Shown here one piece after another: positions 3,013 through 43,985 of a DNA stretch of 64,000 nucleotides (positions within the stretch are counted from its first letter, which is position 1; each line of letters begins with the position of its first letter). The notes below the pieces were generated by a model that was not told where the DNA came from, did no database searches, and worked only from the letters and a program-made list of their open reading frames with translations. Source of the DNA: an uncultured Bacillota bacterium (GTDB lineage: Bacteria > Bacillota_I > Bacilli_A > RF39 > UBA660); NCBI GenBank assembly GCA_948466255.1, contig CAOJZV010000002.1:2874-66873 (forward strand), written 5' to 3'. The position numbers and the translations under genes are program-made.

Positions 3013-4999
3013 ACTATCATTAAAAAATATTAAAAAAAGTTTCAAAGATTATGCAATATATTTTCTAACACTTATCCTAGGTGTTGCCATATTCTATGTC
3101 TTTAATGCTATGGAATCACAACAAGCAATGATGGATATGACCGAAACAAAAAAACAAATTCTAGATTTAATGAATAATTTGTTAGGAGGAGTTTCAGTCT
3201 TTGTTTCGTTTGTATTAGGTTTCCTAATTATATATGCGAATAAATTCTTAATCAAAAAACGTAAAAAAGAATTTGGTATATATATGACCCTAGGAATGGG
3301 TAAAAGCGGGATGTCAAAAATGCTACTAATAGAGACAATCTTAATCGGTTTAATTTCACTAGCTGTTGGTCTAGTAGTCGGTATATTTGCTTCACAACTA
3401 ATGAGCGTAATAGTTGCTAAAATGTTCGAGGTAGATATGACATCATATGCCTTTACTTTCTCAAATGAAGCTGTAATAAAAACAATAATTTACTTTGGGA
3501 TAATGTATTTATTAGTAATGATTTTAAATACATTTATAATCTCAAAATATAAATTAATAAATCTTATAAACGCATCAAAACAAAACGAAAAAGTAAAAGT
3601 TAAAAATCCTATTATTTCCATACTTATATTTATTGCTAGTATAGGAGTGTTAAGCTTTGCTTATTATCAAGTTACCGAAAACATCATGAATTTAGAATTT
3701 AACCAGTTTTTAGGCTGCATTGTTTTAGGTATAGTTGGAACAATAATGTTCTTCTATGGCGTATCTGGTTTTATTTTAAGATTAGTTCAAGCTAACAAAA
3801 AACTCTACCTTAAAGGACTAAATATGTTTGTCTTAAGACAAATAAATAGTAAAATAAATACAACTGTATTTTCGGTAAGTGTAATATGTGTTTTACTATT
3901 CTTAACAATAACCATTTTTTCAACCGCTATGAGTTTAAACAACATTGCTAAAAAAGATCTTAAAGAATTAACTCCGATGGATATACAAATTAAAGAATAT
4001 ACAGGTGAAAATGAAACAAGATCACTTCAAAAAGTTTTAACTGATAGTGGATTAAATATGAATAATTTAAAAGATATGGTAGAAGTAAATGAATATCTAA
4101 TTGATACAGTACTTACTAAAGATGTATTAGGTGAAAAACTCGCAAATAGAAATGAAACAGAGTTTAAATATCATTTAGAAATGCCAGAAACAATAATGAG
4201 CATTTCTGATTATAATAAAGTGGCAAAACAATATGGGAACGAAACATTTACATTAAATGAGGATGAATATTTAGTTACAGCAGATTATGAAGATATGATA
4301 AAATATCGTAATGAAGCTTTAAAAGACGGAGTAACAATTAATATAAATAATAAATTATATAAACCAAAATATGATGAAATTAAAGATGGTTTCGTTGAAA
4401 TGGGAGCAAATCATTCTAATACTGGTTTATTTATTTTTCCAGATAAAGCTTTAGAAAATATAAAACCTGCACATCGCCTTTTAATGGCAAACTATAATGC
4501 AAATAATGATGAAGAATACAAAAAAATAGAAAAAAGAATATCTGATATCAGAGTAGACAATGTAGCGATAGGATTTTATACTAAAACATCTATTTATGAT
4601 TCAGCTGTTGGGCTAGGGGCAATAGTAACCTTTATTGGACTTTATTTGGGAATAATCTTCTTAATTTCTTCAGCTGCCATCTTAGCATTAAAAGAATTAT
4701 CAGACTCATCAGATAATAAAGAAAGATATAACACATTAAGAAAAATAGGTGCTGATGAAAAAATGATAAATAAATCATTATTTAAACAAATAGGAATCTT
4801 CTTTCTAGCGCCACTTTTACTTGCAATTATCCATTCAATATTTGGAATAAAATGTGCGAATATAATGTTATCAGCCTTTGGTAAATCAGGAATGCTTACA
4901 TCGATAATTATGACAGCTATATTAATAATTGTTATTTATGGTGGATATTTCTTACTTACATATTTCTCAAGTAAATCTATAATAAAAGAATATGAATAA
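3002..4999 (+). CDS. FtsX-family ABC permease with a large extracellular domain (BceB-like)
   Basis: 665 aa with multiple TM helices flanking a soluble loop of about 220 aa. It overlaps the ATPase gene by 11 nt, which is the typical BceAB architecture. Confidence 0.9.
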   Translation: MLFKLSLKNIKKSFKDYAIYFLTLILGVAIFYVFNAMESQQAMMDMTETKKQILDLMNNLLGGVSVFVSFVLGFLIIYANKFLIKKRKKEFGIYMTLGMGKSGMSKMLLIETILIGLISLAVGLVVGIFASQLMSVIVAKMFEVDMTSYAFTFSNEAVIKTIIYFGIMYLLVMILNTFIISKYKLINLINASKQNEKVKVKNPIISILIFIASIGVLSFAYYQVTENIMNLEFNQFLGCIVLGIVGTIMFFYGVSGFILRLVQANKKLYLKGLNMFVLRQINSKINTTVFSVSVICVLLFLTITIFSTAMSLNNIAKKDLKELTPMDIQIKEYTGENETRSLQKVLTDSGLNMNNLKDMVEVNEYLIDTVLTKDVLGEKLANRNETEFKYHLEMPETIMSISDYNKVAKQYGNETFTLNEDEYLVTADYEDMIKYRNEALKDGVTININNKLYKPKYDEIKDGFVEMGANHSNTGLFIFPDKALENIKPAHRLLMANYNANNDEEYKKIEKRISDIRVDNVAIGFYTKTSIYDSAVGLGAIVTFIGLYLGIIFLISSAAILALKELSDSSDNKERYNTLRKIGADEKMINKSLFKQIGIFFLAPLLLAIIHSIFGIKCANIMLSAFGKSGMLTSIIMTAILIIVIYGGYFLLTYFSSKSIIKEYE

Positions 5000-38865: not shown

Positions 38866-39624
38866 TTATTTATTAATAATTTCAGCTTTACATAAAGATA
38901 CAAATGCCGGATTACTATTATTGTTTCCAACTACAACTACCATTCCGAATTCACTTCTTAAAATATCACCTTGAGCAACCGTTTGGCCGCCAGCATTTAT
39001 ATCAACATTAGGTGTCCCTGCTGGTAAGTATGAACGAGCTGCAGCTTCACAATTAGCATCACACCCTGTTGGAGCAGGATCAGGAGCTGGTAAATACGTA
39101 ATAGCATCATTGTATGTGCTACTTGTAACAGTTATTGAAGCAATTCTACATATTGATAAAGCTTCCTCAGGGACTCCTTGAGTATTAACTAATTGAAATA
39201 GTCCAGAATTAGGATTATTATCAGGTGCAGGCAATAATGATCCTGGACGTCCACTAGCGTTATTACCACTTTCCATTGCAACTATTAAATTATCATTCGG
39301 ATATAATGTAATGATTTGTTGGATTATATTCCTCATTTGATCTACACAGAAGCAACTTGCAGAGTTAGCGTTACTGCCTGTAGGACCTGTAGGTCCCTGA
39401 ATACCTTGAGGTCCGGTAGCTCCAGTTGGACCTGTAGGCCCTTGAATACCTTGTGGACCAGTTGCTCCGGTTGCACCTGTAGGACCTGTAGGTCCACCAC
39501 CAGGCCCAGTAGGTCCAGTGGGACCGGTTGGTCCGATTGGCCCTTGACAACAAGTTGGTTTACAATGTTCATCACATTTTATTTTTCGTAAAGCTCTTTC
39601 ATAATTTTCATTGTTACAATTCAT
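38866..39624 (-). CDS. Collagen-like triple-helix repeat protein (BclA-like exosporium/spore-surface candidate)
   Basis: Cys-rich N-terminus ([10 protein letters not shown]), about 19 G-X-Y triplets ([12 protein letters not shown]), then a C-terminal domain of about 165 aa. It is a local GC-rich island in AT-rich DNA. Confidence 0.8.
39373..39546 (-). repeat. G-X-Y (collagen) coding repeat, including a duplicated 45-nt [15 protein letters not shown] unit
   Basis: Direct reading of the translation. There is one register break (GPG-G-GPT). Confidence 0.85.
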
Positions 39625-39737: not shown

Positions 39738-41195
39738 ATGAAGCAAAAATCCATTTGGACAAACGAAATAAATGAAAAAACATATCCAGAATTAAATGAA
39801 AATATAAAATGTAATATACTAATTATAGGTGGAGGAATTGCTGGAATAAACGCTGCCTTAAACCTAAAAGATAATGAAGGAGTAGTATTAATAGATAAAG
39901 ATAAAATAGGTTATGGAGTTACTTCACATACAACTGGAAAACTAACATACCTTCAAGGAACTATGTATACAGATATTCAAAAAGCACATGATTTTAATGT
40001 AGCCAAAAAATATTTAGAATCACAAAAAGATGCAATTAAAATAGCCATTGAAAATATCAAAAAGTATAATATCGACTGCGATTTAGAAAAAAATGATTCA
40101 TATCTTTTTACTACTGAAGAAGATAAAGGATTAAATAGTCAAAGAGATTTTCTTTCTAAAACAAATACATATTTTGAAGATAGTAAATTGCCGGCAGATA
40201 TACCATGTAAAGATGCGATAAAAGTGAAAGATACATATGTCTTTCATCCTTTAAAATATATAATGGGTATAAAGGAAATTATTAAAGATAAAGTCAAAAT
40301 ATATGAAAATACGACTGCTATCGACATGGATTATAAAGATAATCATTATATTATAAAAACAAAAAGCGGATATACAATTACATCAAACAAAGTAATCATC
40401 ACCACACATTATCCATTCTTTATTTTCCCAGGTCTAATTCCGATAAAAATAGGTTTAAATCAGTCATATGCATTATCAGCTAAACATAAAAATGAAAATT
40501 GGAATGCAATAAATATAGATAAAGAAATACACTCAATAAGATTTTATAAAGATAATATAATAGTTGGCGGTTTTTCTCATGATTTATCAGATAACATAGA
40601 TTATAAAAAAGAAGAGGATAAACTTATAAATTTTTACAATACTTATTTTACAAACAAACCAGAAGAAGTTTGGTTAACTCATGATTTAAAATCACATGAT
40701 TATCTTCCGATTATAAGTAGATTAAATGAAAATCATCCAAATTTATTAGTTGCCACTGCATTTAATAAATGGGGTATGACAAACGGTATTTTAGCTGGAA
40801 AAATATTAGCAGATTTAGTAAATAATGTAGAAAATAGATACGAAGCCTTGTTTAAAATAGATAGATCACCATCATTAGAAAAAACTAAAAATTTTATAAC
40901 AAGTAATTTTAAAATAGGAAAAACTTTTATAGGAACAAAATTAGATAAAAATAAAGAATTTTATAATAAAACATATATAACAAATATAGATGGACATCCT
41001 TGCGGTGTTTATATAGACGAAAAAGGCGAAAAACATATAGTGAGGAATACGTGCCCCCATTTTAAATGTTCATTAATTTTTAATAATGCCGATAAAACTT
41101 GGGACTGTCCTTGTCATGGTTCAAGATTTGATATAGATGGTAACTTAATAGAAGGGCCCTCAGTATTTGACATAAAACTAAAAGAAGATAAATAA
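39738..41195 (+). CDS. FAD-dependent oxidoreductase with a C-terminal Rieske [2Fe-2S] domain
   Basis: Dinucleotide-binding motif ILIIGGGIAGINAAL and Rieske motifs CPHFKC...CPCHGSRF. The second ATG (39738) has the better RBS spacing. Confidence 0.85.
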   Translation: MKQKSIWTNEINEKTYPELNENIKCNILIIGGGIAGINAALNLKDNEGVVLIDKDKIGYGVTSHTTGKLTYLQGTMYTDIQKAHDFNVAKKYLESQKDAIKIAIENIKKYNIDCDLEKNDSYLFTTEEDKGLNSQRDFLSKTNTYFEDSKLPADIPCKDAIKVKDTYVFHPLKYIMGIKEIIKDKVKIYENTTAIDMDYKDNHYIIKTKSGYTITSNKVIITTHYPFFIFPGLIPIKIGLNQSYALSAKHKNENWNAINIDKEIHSIRFYKDNIIVGGFSHDLSDNIDYKKEEDKLINFYNTYFTNKPEEVWLTHDLKSHDYLPIISRLNENHPNLLVATAFNKWGMTNGILAGKILADLVNNVENRYEALFKIDRSPSLEKTKNFITSNFKIGKTFIGTKLDKNKEFYNKTYITNIDGHPCGVYIDEKGEKHIVRNTCPHFKCSLIFNNADKTWDCPCHGSRFDIDGNLIEGPSVFDIKLKEDK

Positions 41196-41255
41196 CAATC
41201 AAACATAAATCATTTTATTATTGAATAATTTTGTGATTTATGATATATTCTAATT

Positions 41256-41331
41256 AATGGGAAACATTGTAACATATCAATGTCTACCATATTGGGTGAG
41301 ACATTTAGCCTAAAGCTAGATGTCTTTTTTT
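41256..41331 (+). ncRNA. Candidate antisense small RNA (putative type I antitoxin)
   Basis: Promoter TTGAAT (41221-41226)-17 nt-TGaTATATT (41241-41249). Terminator AGACATTTAGC-CTAAA-GCTAGATGTCT (41299-41325) plus T6-7. No ORF. It is fully complementary to the region downstream of the minus-strand mini-ORF. Confidence 0.4.
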
Positions 41332-41336
41332 ACGAC

Positions 41337-41414
41337 CTAAACCCCCTGAGGGAACAGAATCAATAAAACTATAATTATAAGCAATACTAGGATTAAAAAA
41401 TCTTTTTTTGTCAT
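41337..41414 (-). CDS. Candidate type I toxin: 25-aa hydrophobic peptide MTKKDFLILVLLIIIVLLILFPQGV
   Basis: GGAGG at 41425-41429, 10 nt upstream of the ATG at 41414; an in-frame ATG also occurs at 41420. The peptide forms a single predicted TM helix after a KKD motif. It is too short to appear in the ORF track. Confidence 0.45.
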   Translation of the reverse strand: MTKKDFLILVLLIIIVLLILFPQGV

Positions 41415-41693
41415 AACCATAAAACCTCCAATCTAACTCATATGAATGATTAAAGGTAGACACCGATAGCGGTTACAAATGTTTCCAGGGAATTAATTTA
41501 AACTATCACACTATAATAGTCAAATGACAAATTTACCAAATTTGAGGCACTTTCCTATACAAAAATAAGAAATCTACCTTAGACAAAAATGACAAATTCG
41601 TAAACATAAACCTATCCAAAAAAGAAAGTTTGCATTTCACAAAAAATATGAATAATGCTAGTACACATTGAATATAAATTATTAGGTGATAAT

Positions 41694-42263
41694 ATGGCAA
41701 AAAAGACCAAAACAAAAGAAAAACCATCTCGTTTTTCTAGGTATTTAAGTAGGTTTTTAGTATTAGTAGTAATAACATTAGTAACACTCATTACATTAAA
41801 AAGTAATCCTGATTTAAGAAATAAAGTATATAAGACAGTATTCCAAAACAATATGAGTTTTGCCAAAATAAACGAAGTATATAAAAAATATTTTGGGTCA
41901 TCACTTCCACTTGCAGATAATGTAACCGCTGATACAGAGTTAGTGTCAGCTGAAAAATTAGAATATACAGATATCAGTAAATATAAAGAGGGGGCTAAAC
42001 TAACTGTAAAAGAAAATTATGTAGTTCCAGCCACGGATAGCGGTTTAATAATATTTGCTGGTAAAAAAGATGATTATGGAAATACAATAATAGTTCAAAG
42101 ACCAGACAACGTAGAAGTGTGGTACGCAGGTTTAAAAGAAACAAATGTAGATTTATACGATTACATTAAAAAAGGTGAAATAATAGGGGAAGTAAAAGAT
42201 AAGACACTATATATGGTCTTTACTAAAGAAGGTAAGGCGTTAGATTATCAAAAATATATTTAA
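41694..42263 (+). CDS. spoIVFA: SpoIVFA-like protein (TM anchor plus degenerate M23/LytM domain)
   Basis: Basic N-terminus, one TM helix and a C-terminal M23-like region (GLIIFAGKKDDYGNTIIVQ...GEIIG). It lies directly upstream of an M50 protease gene and rplU, as in B. subtilis. Confidence 0.65.
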   Translation: MAKKTKTKEKPSRFSRYLSRFLVLVVITLVTLITLKSNPDLRNKVYKTVFQNNMSFAKINEVYKKYFGSSLPLADNVTADTELVSAEKLEYTDISKYKEGAKLTVKENYVVPATDSGLIIFAGKKDDYGNTIIVQRPDNVEVWYAGLKETNVDLYDYIKKGEIIGEVKDKTLYMVFTKEGKALDYQKYI

Positions 42264-42300
42264 AATTCATTTATTTTATTATATAACAGCCTTTATATGC

Positions 42301-42984
42301 ATGATAACAGGTAATTTTAAAGGCTTTTTTTTATTCAGTATAATAATATTAGTTCATGAATTAGGCCACATTTTACCCGCTTTATATTATAAATGGAACA
42401 TAGAAAAAGTAGTCCTTTTACCTTTTGGCGCACTAACACTTTTCAAAGAAAAAATAAATAGGCCATTAAAAGAAGAATTTATTATATTAATTTCAGGCCC
42501 ATTAATCCAAATAATCTTTACATATATATTATTAAAAATAAATTATAACGAAGATATATTAAATTATAGTAAATTAATATTATTTTTTAATTTACTTCCA
42601 ATATATCCATTAGATGGCTCAAAACTACTAAATATTTTTTTAAATAAACTAACAAGCTTTAAAAAAAGCCATTTACTTACAATTTACATATCATTTTTAA
42701 CACTTTTATTTTTACTAATAAAAGTGAAAGTTAATTTAATTTTAATTTTAATTCTAATTTTTGTAATAATAAAAGTATTAGAAGAACTTAAAAACCACAA
42801 TAATCTTTTCAACAAATTTTTACTAGAAAGATATACCTACAATATAAATTTTAAAAAAAGAAAAAATATAACAAATATTAAACAAATGAAACGAGATTAC
42901 AAACATATAATTTATAATGAAGGCAAATACCAAACCGAAAAGGAAATATTAGGAAAAAGGTTTGACTTTAAAAAGAAAATATGA
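42301..42984 (+). CDS. spoIVFB: Site-2 (M50) intramembrane metalloprotease, SpoIVFB-like
   Basis: HELGH at residues 19-23 and NLLPIYPLDGSKLL (NxxPxxxLDG). Synteny with rplU-prp-rpmA. Confidence 0.8.
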   Translation: MITGNFKGFFLFSIIILVHELGHILPALYYKWNIEKVVLLPFGALTLFKEKINRPLKEEFIILISGPLIQIIFTYILLKINYNEDILNYSKLILFFNLLPIYPLDGSKLLNIFLNKLTSFKKSHLLTIYISFLTLLFLLIKVKVNLILILILIFVIIKVLEELKNHNNLFNKFLLERYTYNINFKKRKNITNIKQMKRDYKHIIYNEGKYQTEKEILGKRFDFKKKI

Positions 42985-43093
42985 TAAAATCATTAATTGT
43001 GTAGAGCCTCACTCTACAACCGCGCAGAAAAGGTTATAAAACGTTAGGTTACCTTAATGGCGAGTCTTAGATTCTTAAAAGGAGGTTAGAAAT
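42962..43093 (+). promoter_or_regulatory. rplU promoter (TTGACT-17 nt-TGaTAAAAT) plus a structured leader, possibly an L21-leader-type autoregulatory RNA
   Basis: -35 at 42962-42967 and -10 at 42985-42990. Hairpin TGTAGAG-CCTCA-CTCTACA at about 43000-43019. Firmicute rplU operons commonly carry an L21 leader; this was not verified against a model. Confidence 0.4.
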
Positions 43094-43393
43094 ATGAAAG
43101 CAGTTATCGAAACTGGAGGAAAACAATATTATGTTGCAGAAGGTACTGAACTTTACATTGAAAAATTAGAAGCTAATGCTGGCGACAAAATCACTTTTGA
43201 TAAAGTTTTAATGGTAGATGGTCAAAGTGGTACTCCATATGTAAAAGGAGCTAAAGTAGAAGCTAAAGTTATCAAAAATGGTAAAGCTAAAAAAATTACT
43301 ATCTTCAAATTTAAAGCAAAGAAAAAATATCGTCGTACTCAAGGACATCGTCAACCATATACTAAGGTTGAAATCACAAAGATTACAAAATAA
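43094..43393 (+). CDS. rplU: 50S ribosomal protein L21
   Basis: [12 protein letters not shown]...[11 protein letters not shown]. Confidence 0.96.
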
Positions 43394-43692
43394 TGATTAA
43401 AGTAAATATTAAAAATAATCATATTGAAATAAAAGGGCACGCAATGTACGATGATATGGGTAAAGATATCGTTTGTGCCGCAGTTAGTACGATAGTAATT
43501 ACAACAATAAATGCTATTATTAGATTTGATAAAGAAGCCATTAAATATGAAGAAAAAGATGGCCATATTAGTATCGATGTATTAAAAGATACTAACATTA
43601 CTAACACACTTATTTTGAATATGATAGAATTATTAAAAGAATTAGAAAAACAGTATAAAAAAAATATCAAAATAAATGAGGAGGTGCTATAA
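43393..43692 (+). CDS. prp: Ribosomal-processing cysteine protease Prp
   Basis: 99 aa, lying between rplU and rpmA, with GHA...DIVCAAVS motifs. Confidence 0.88.
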
Positions 43693-43985
43693 TGCCAATG
43701 TTAAAGTTAAATATCCAATTATTCGCCCATAAAAAAGGACAAGGTTCAACTAAAAACGGTCGTGATTCTGAATCAAAAAGATTAGGTGCTAAAGCAGCTG
43801 ATGGACAATTTGTAACAGGTGGATCAATTATTTACCGTCAAAGAGGAACTAGAATTTATCCAGGGAACAATGTTGGAATCGGAAAAGATGATACAATTTT
43901 CGCAAAAATAGATGGTATTGTTAAATTTGAACGTGTAGGAAGAGATAAAAAACAAGCTAGTGTTTATCCAAGAGAAGAAATGTAA
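43692..43985 (+). CDS. rpmA: 50S ribosomal protein L27 with a cleavable N-terminal extension
   Basis: [11 protein letters not shown]|[15 protein letters not shown]. This is the Firmicute-type propeptide removed by Prp. Confidence 0.96.

Follow-up and report, generated by a model that had tools for sequence, protein, structure and literature searches.

A candidate type I toxin-antitoxin-like module on the bsrG/SR4 plan beside spoIVFA in uncultured gut Bacilli

Known type I families of toxin-antitoxin (TA) systems come almost entirely from cultured model organisms, and such families escape ordinary annotation. Here we describe an intergenic locus in a 64,000-nt stretch of DNA (contig CAOJZV010000002.1; hereafter the window, meaning the whole of this stretch) from an uncultured Bacillota bacterium, which lies between a Rieske/FAD oxidoreductase gene and spoIVFA, the gene of a SpoIVFA-like M23 peptidase, and which probably represents a type I TA-like module built on the plan of bsrG/SR4. 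From the comparison of its sequences, it appears to be a well-supported candidate for a new family of the type I TA kind, without a match in Rfam, Pfam or NCBIfam. A first-pass annotation of the same DNA had proposed a type I locus in this spacer; the features that it listed were all found again by sequence inspection, pattern scan and repeat search, and the candidate locus is supported as a structural reading, since each of its elements is conserved or covarying in seven other alleles. Although another type I family in Firmicutes would be unsurprising to specialists, the comparative support is unusually complete.

In bsrG, a closing helix (P1) is made by nt 1-35 of the mRNA with nt 232-262, the Shine-Dalgarno (SD) sequence is held in the first stem-loop above it and a terminator follows P1; the SR4 RNA binds the 3' part of this mRNA, upon which the SD helix grows from 4 to 8 bp and decay by RNase III sets in (PMC3834814). 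More generally, SD/anti-SD pairing and long-distance 5'-3' interactions are recognised hallmarks of type I toxin mRNAs, and Rfam holds 13 families of type I antitoxin RNA (PMC8594479). The predicted mRNA of the present locus closes in a similar manner, by a P1 helix between nt 1-32 and 199-227, with the SD stem directly above it and an antisense RNA that covers the 3' strand of P1, and modelling suggests that the SD stem would be tightened here as it is on bsrG by SR4. The first-pass annotation had likened the fold-back to that of hok-type mRNAs; the long-distance closure of the 5' and 3' ends stands, but bsrG/SR4, not hok/sok, is the closest analogue of the module. The as-BsrE-G-H RNAs overlap the open reading frame (ORF) of the toxin (PMC8594479), whereas the antisense RNA here does not. 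In addition, the peptide is shorter (25-27 aa, compared with 38 aa in BsrG) and has no charged tail, the antisense RNA has 76-100 nt compared with ~180 nt in SR4, and the host belongs to an uncultured gut Bacilli lineage, with no prophage context seen. The module was not filed in the BsrG family because its antisense RNA does not overlap the ORF and no toxin homology was found. The peptide is not known to resemble BsrG, BsrE or BsrH, to which no direct alignment was made and models of which were not confirmed to be part of Pfam and NCBIfam. The design of closing helix, SD stem-loop and 3' antisense RNA would thus extend to an unrelated sequence family in uncultured gut Bacilli.

Other systems resemble the locus in part. 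A convergent antisense RNA whose overlap with the 3' end of the toxin mRNA is the site of interaction is also found in txpA/RatA of B. subtilis and E. faecalis (PMC8594479, PMC6563280). The layout that had been compared earlier with TxpA/RatA and BsrG/SR4 shares with them the convergent 3' antisense RNA, but the ORF is overlapped by RatA and by the as-BsrE-G-H RNAs and left free here; TxpA has 59 aa and RatA ~220 nt, and no similarity to either was found through Rfam or Pfam. In Fst/RNAII (par) and SprA1/SprA1as, the antisense RNA also lies on the 3' side without overlapping the ORF, the SD sequence is sequestered in a 5' stem-loop, and the small toxin (29-33 aa there) carries an N-terminal K-D as the present peptide does (PMC8594479, PMC8309996). 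Their functional pairing, however, takes place outside the overlap, at the 5' translation-initiation region, with which the antisense RNA here has no such complementarity. In hok/sok and AapA/IsoA, a long-distance 5'-3' fold-back keeps the full-length toxin mRNA inert (PMC8594479), but the antisense RNA lies wholly inside the 5' part of the mRNA and targets this region only after 3' processing, whereas here the 3' arm of the fold-back would be the target; the peptides are unrelated. Three features of the type I class in general were found at the locus: a hydrophobic peptide of <60 aa for which a transmembrane helix is predicted and which a short mRNA would encode, an antisense gene with its own putative promoter and terminator, and SD/anti-SD sequestration as well as 5'-3' interaction predicted within the mRNA. 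For a further trait of the class, a toxic peptide neutralised by the antisense RNA, the natural frameshift allele and the patchy distribution described below are indirect hints only.

The window has a G+C content of 27.7%, and its relatives are metagenome-assembled genomes of uncultured gut 'Bacilli/Tenericutes', not Clostridium. Copies of the module were sought by four routes: with the downstream SpoIVFA-like M23 peptidase gene as an anchor in relatives; by a pattern scan of metagenomes, in which one allele (L023) was the only genuine one among 14 matches; with spurious wrong-frame ORFs deposited over the locus as queries, which led to L033 and L034; and by an nhmmer profile search with the toxin mRNA core, which matched module copies only. 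Eight distinct alleles were obtained, namely that of the window and seven from related uncultured gut Bacilli: L002 (= L049), L004, L044 (cut by a contig end), L023, L034, L033 (= L045-L048) and L035-L038. L001 was considered as a diverged copy and ruled out upon alignment. The 25-aa ORF is missed by gene callers every time, being too short for calling. The spurious ORFs read over the module (52 aa at 41305-41463 of the window, minus strand; 133 aa in the contig of L034) are held as predicted proteins, P0001 and P0002, in public protein collections. Neither the module DNA nor the peptide had a match in plasmid collections, the sole match in a phage search was a chance 38-nt stretch, three pattern scans of viral contigs gave nothing or chance matches, and the peptide motif was found in no paper of the literature searched. 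Weak tblastn matches to the hydrophobic peptide were observed in the window at ORF starts with type IV pilin-like N-termini (~15333, 22779, 48317 and 48675, plus strand).

The predicted toxin mRNA is read from the minus strand. Its putative promoter, found by pattern scan at 41495-41523 (-35 box TTGACT, 17 nt, -10 box TAAATT), would set the start at ~41487-41488, 1-2 nt ahead of the 5' arm, and its hexamers are kept in place in L002 (TTGACC/TATATT), L004 (TTGATT/TATATT) and L023 (TTGACA/TAGAAT) and also in L035. The core of this mRNA, from the 5' arm to the 3' arm, has 227 nt (41260-41486), the actual 3' end being further downstream. All alleles are predicted to fold into a common three-part architecture, with energies of -71 to -87 kcal/mol. 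For a 248-nt minus-strand RNA of the window, the energy is -73 kcal/mol (z = -5.9 compared with shuffles), and the plus strand of that region folds less well (-62 kcal/mol).

The imperfect inverted repeats that had been noted around the ORF, and from which a 5'-3' fold-back had been predicted, correspond to the two arms of P1, which were recovered by repeat search (I7/I8) at 41455-41486 (5' arm) and 41260-41288 (3' arm) of the minus strand. When a pre-specified helix of 27 pairs (core nt 1-32 with 199-227) was counted over an alignment of six sequences (A6), standard pairs were found in 162 of 162 cells, with three pairs changed on both sides; the observed score was reached by 3 of 500 shuffles, and helices slid out of place pair in 32-50% of cells. 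On the minus strand, P1 contains two to four G·U pairs in each allele; read on the plus strand, these would become C·A mismatches, and the fold-back is placed on the minus-strand RNA for this reason. L034 differs from L023 at one core position, where A-U has become G·U, an intermediate towards the G-C of other alleles. Natural compensatory variants of the pair 41457/41262 are A-U, G·U and G-C. The most conserved stretch of the module, nearly identical in all alleles, is the 3' arm, to which the 5' hairpin of the antisense RNA is complementary.

Directly above P1, the GGAGG is paired with a CCU-rich anti-SD in every allele folded alone. In the window, this SD-sequestering stem-loop occupies 41424-41457 of the minus strand and is formed by the anti-SD CCUUUAAUC with GAUUGGAGG; the small hairpin nested inside varies in sequence among alleles and keeps its pairing (AUUC/GAGU, UUUCAGG/CCUGGAA, UUCAGG/CCUGAA and AUUC/GAAU). 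Beyond P1, an AU-rich hairpin at 41205-41242 of the minus strand, whose loop is the -35 box of the antisense promoter and which has a U-rich tail, may terminate the toxin mRNA; such a hairpin is clear in the window, L002 and L033 (stem of 9-15 bp followed by a U-rich tract).

The ORF reported earlier on the minus strand was confirmed as a frame of 25 aa at 41337-41414 (MTKKDFLILVLLIIIVLLILFPQGV; ATG at 41414, stop codon at 41339-41337) with GGAGG (41425-41429) 10 nt before the ATG. If translation began in frame at the ATG at 41420, the product would have 27 aa, but relatives do not keep this codon, so that the 25-aa reading is considered right. In six alleles the frame is open at 25-27 aa (MTKKDFLILVLLIIIVLLILFPQGV, MTKKDFLILVLLIVIILLVALLWKGLN, MSKKDFLIFMLLIIIILLISLLWKFI, MGKKDFLIFMLLIIIILLISLLWKFI, MSKKDFLIVLLIIIIILLILFPRGL and MSKKDFLIILLIIIIILLILFPQGV), and in all alleles GGAGG and ATG are invariant, at a spacing of 8-10 nt. 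Within the core (codons 6-19, 14 codons), these six alleles have 8 variable columns at first codon positions, 0 at second positions, where every codon of each allele carries a T, and 7 at third positions (Fisher p = 4.6e-4). The lengths of the ORF (78, 81 and 84 nt) differ by multiples of 3 only, in contrast to the indels of the untranslated regions (UTRs), which have 1, 2 and 30 nt. The peptides have a GRAVY of 1.9-2.1 and an uninterrupted hydrophobic core of 15-16 residues, which contains no proline or glycine in any allele, these residues occurring only among the last four of some. The pattern indicates that the ORF is coding and under selection for hydrophobicity. No family of Pfam or NCBIfam was significant for the peptide even at E<=10.

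In one allele (L035-L038, at ~2071-2295, a single sequence shared by four JGI samples), a run of seven A's at window position 41403 is shortened to six, which reduces the product to MTKKIF*, while both putative promoters, P1 and the terminator are kept. Over 41251-41402 this allele differs from the window at three sites only, the ORF beyond the lesion being identical to that of the window, and an intact A7 allele is present in the same samples, from which the frameshift was judged to be recent and not a sequencing artefact. Lying at the KK codons, this A7 run could act as a hotspot of slippage or as an on/off switch. Among the alleles, that of the window included, six intact ORFs were found together with covariation of P1 and of the terminator stems described below; a broken ORF along with unconserved arms, which the first-pass annotation had named as evidence against its proposal, was not found, as the one frameshift lineage is recent and has intact arms.

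On the opposite strand, the extended -10 promoter already noted (41221-41249; TTGAAT, 17 nt, TGATATATT) was found by pattern scan and is conserved, as L002, L004, L023 and L035 have TTGAAT or TTGAAC, 17 nt, and then TGATATACT, TGATATAAA, TGTTATAGT or TGATATATT (consensus TTGAAT-17-TGnTATAnn, with TTGAAC as the variant of the -35 box). The RNA that it would produce, a putative antitoxin of ~76 nt at 41256-41331 (plus strand), has a hairpin at its 5' end, which a single-stranded linker connects to an intrinsic terminator, with a predicted energy of -25 kcal/mol (z = -4.7), and this two-hairpin design is seen in all alleles, at 76-100 nt. The hairpin and U-run described earlier are present and conserved, although the terminator scan gives a 12-bp stem with U7 at 41298-41331 instead of 11 bp from 41299. 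The stem has a different sequence in every allele and always pairs, the U-run is always on the plus strand, and the pattern scan gave two terminator-like sites compared with 0.3 expected. Since the gene beside the antisense unit is divergent from it in L023 and L034, the hairpin cannot be the terminator of an upstream gene. Known structured RNAs (6S, SRP, riboswitch) were ruled out, as Rfam cmscan of 40500-42300 gave no match at E<=1; at the gathering threshold, only tRNAs and the L21 leader were matched over the whole window. The ectopic allele L023 has a 30-nt insertion just past the stop codon (3430-3460), and a 19-nt palindromic insertion (GAGAGATCTCTC; 3545-3567) gives its antisense RNA an extra 5' hairpin.

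The antisense RNA is fully complementary to the predicted toxin 3' UTR and, as had been claimed, overlaps nothing else of the mRNA, ending ~6 nt short of the stop codon (41331 and 41337-41339, respectively). Duplexes between the antisense RNA and the SD/AUG region were no better than those of shuffles (z = -0.4 to -2.3), so that any interaction of the two RNAs would go through the 3' overlap.

A mechanism can be proposed on this basis. The sigma-A-type promoter at 41523-41495 would drive the minus-strand mRNA, the first 32 nt of which would pair with its 3' UTR as the 27-bp P1, the first stem-loop above P1 would bury the SD, and the AUG would be paired too. Because the SD is predicted to be buried and the AUG paired, the 25-aa single-helix membrane peptide would be made rarely, if at all. 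The stronger convergent extended -10 promoter would yield the 76-nt antisense RNA, the perfect complement of the 3' UTR, within which the 3' strand of P1 lies. As the 5' half of the antisense RNA is in effect a copy of the 5' arm of the mRNA, the two would compete for the 3' arm; once bound, the antisense RNA would push the 5' arm aside, creating a long duplex for RNase III, and would free two C's at the base of P1, by which the anti-SD stem would be lengthened. The outcome would be decay of the mRNA combined with tighter translational repression. When the antisense target was masked in the model, the accessibility of the SD was lower in all five alleles (0.05 to 0.00, 0.13 to 0.00, 0.56 to 0.05, 0.25 to 0.20 and 0.35 to 0.20) because the two C's at the base of P1 complete the anti-SD stem, and a tightening of the SD upon antisense binding is predicted from this. 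We infer further that both RNAs are produced, that RNase III cleaves their duplex, that the switch operates and that the peptide is toxic. At 437 bp, the module would be a compact and convenient system for the coupling of mRNA decay to translation by antisense displacement of a 5'-3' helix, and it could serve as a portable RNA regulatory device.

The locus had originally been delimited as 41221-41495, which proved too narrow. The presence/absence unit is ~437 bp (~41199-41635), adding the toxin promoter (41523-41495) and a 110-nt block, and its limits are given by the end points of similarity to L023 and L034, whose flanks are unrelated, and by comparison with sites that lack the module. In these two alleles, from two independent assemblies, the module lies between a GntR/ABC-transporter operon and a P-type ATPase gene, whereas most copies adjoin the genes of a SpoIVFA-like M23 and a SpoIVFB-like M50 protein. 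At two empty sites (L003 and L013), the Rieske-spoIVFA gene pair is kept and the module is absent, with a spacer of only 65 nt and 38 nt, respectively, in which the Rieske stop codon is joined to the spoIVFA promoter; in other relatives, which also lack the module, DcuC or MreD is found upstream of M23. No convincing target-site duplications or terminal inverted repeats were found at the module ends, where two repeats (I2 and I3) are AT-rich at 75% and not conserved. The upstream block (41524-41635, ~110 nt), which travels with the module and is also present in L023 and L034, carries tandem AAATTTGKYA repeats at 41525-41543 and no ORF. A structured RNA in this block was rejected, as the window sequence alone folds well (z = -3.6) but the consensus over six alleles is weak, and AAATTTGKYA was likewise rejected as a genome-wide operator, having no occurrence outside the module in the 64-kb window.

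One identical SpoIVFA-like anchor protein (P0009) is linked to two alleles, of the L002 type and the L033 type (L045-L049, module at ~2106-2338), which have their arms and flanks in common and differ in SD stem, ORF and terminator. From these sequences, cassette-like recombination within the module is indicated, leaving it mosaic within one species. The 437-bp unit might even be an autonomous, recombinase-free mobile RNA-peptide element that brings its regulatory block (41524-41635) along, moves or is exchanged between intergenic sites through recombination, homologous or illegitimate, and swaps its toxin/SD/terminator cassette between fixed arms, the antitoxin being a mimic of the mRNA 5' end that displaces this end from the 3' arm and so switches the mRNA between a stable, closed and inert form and a degradable one; we regard this extended proposal as rather unlikely. 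The empty sites, the frameshift allele and the mosaic alleles with compensatory helix changes represent natural experimental controls.

Several observations weigh against a type I TA-like module. The type I toxins reported from Gram-positives have 28-60 aa and a charged C-terminal tail (PMC6563280); the 25-aa peptide falls below this range and has no such tail, and would rank among the shortest candidate toxins in Gram-positives. The in-helix motif of Fst/Ldr toxins (APxxxG / PxxxGC; PMC8309996) is absent in all alleles, and there is no match to Fst_toxin of Pfam. In the model, SD and AUG would stay buried whether the mRNA is free or bound, and no activation route is evident for this reason. 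The energies of the terminator hairpin have no consistent strand preference, the plus strand being favoured in three of five alleles, so that the terminator is assigned to this strand by its U-run and not by its energies. Not every allele has a defined 3' end for the toxin mRNA, as the AU-rich hairpin is unclear in L004 and L023. No paralogues were found within the 64-kb window by blastn, tblastn or nhmmer, and the frameshift allele could mean that the peptide is dispensable and that the RNAs are the part that matters. Moreover, there are eight distinct alleles only, all of one narrow lineage, and the covariation statistics therefore rest on few independent events.

Several of these points would also fit a small membrane protein without toxicity, tuned by a cis-antisense RNA and by the structure of its mRNA, in which case the architecture would be as described and no addiction or toxin system would exist; such a protein could modulate a transporter or protease, or have its role in the membrane of the spore or the mother cell. 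A polar tail is almost lacking in the peptide, which is smaller than the known toxins of Gram-positives (PMC6563280), most copies adjoin the SpoIVFA-like M23 and SpoIVFB-like M50 genes, no multicopy behaviour was seen in the window (blastn, tblastn, nhmmer), and many small hydrophobic proteins of Gram-positives are reported not to be toxins (PMC10730256). However, the module also occurs away from spoIVFA, beside the GntR/ABC-transporter operon and the P-type ATPase gene, it is absent from the same site in close relatives and mosaic within a species, and an inactivating frameshift occurs, all of which would be expected of selfish or dispensable TA loci rather than of a housekeeping factor. In addition, the pattern described for toxin mRNAs (PMC8594479, PMC3834814) is matched by the heavy double sequestration predicted for SD and AUG, combined with a strong antisense promoter. 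A non-toxic protein, the main rival to a TA-like module, is considered unlikely.

It is also conceivable that only the two RNAs are functional, for example as a structured small RNA and its antisense sponge, and that the mini-ORF is incidental or vestigial. This would agree with the frameshift allele, which retains every RNA element, and with the non-coding nature of the most conserved stretch (the 3' arm, corresponding to the antisense 5' hairpin), but it would leave unexplained why second codon positions in the core are invariant while first and third positions vary freely, why indels in the ORF keep the frame and why GGAGG and ATG are invariant at a proper spacing. The identity of the L035 ORF past the frameshift with that of the window suggests a very recent lesion and not a long non-coding drift. 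We consider a purely RNA-based locus very improbable. Finally, that the plus-strand hairpin and U-run are the terminator of the Rieske/FAD oxidoreductase gene and the repeats and mini-ORF chance features of an AT-rich spacer is scarcely credible, because, although the hairpin lies ~105 nt past the Rieske stop codon in the same orientation and AT-rich spacers yield many promoter-like matches (10 in the pattern scan compared with 5.6 expected), relatives with the same gene pair have a spacer of 38-65 nt without the block, the block recurs intact beside a divergent gene, and chance cannot produce the covariation, the strand-specific G·U pairs and the codon pattern.

Downstream of the candidate module, the region 41694-43985 of the window contains, in the same order as in Bacillus, the genes of the M23 peptidase (SpoIVFA-like) and the M50 protease (SpoIVFB-like), the L21 leader (43008-43077; Rfam RF00559, 51.5 bits), rplU, the Prp protease gene and rpmA, while the gene upstream of M23 varies among relatives (Rieske/FAD oxidoreductase, DcuC or MreD). 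Elsewhere in the window, an ORF at 38866-39624 (minus strand) encodes a protein of 252 aa that has a globular part at its C-terminus besides long collagen-like repeats of GPT triplets and recalls BclA-type exosporium proteins.

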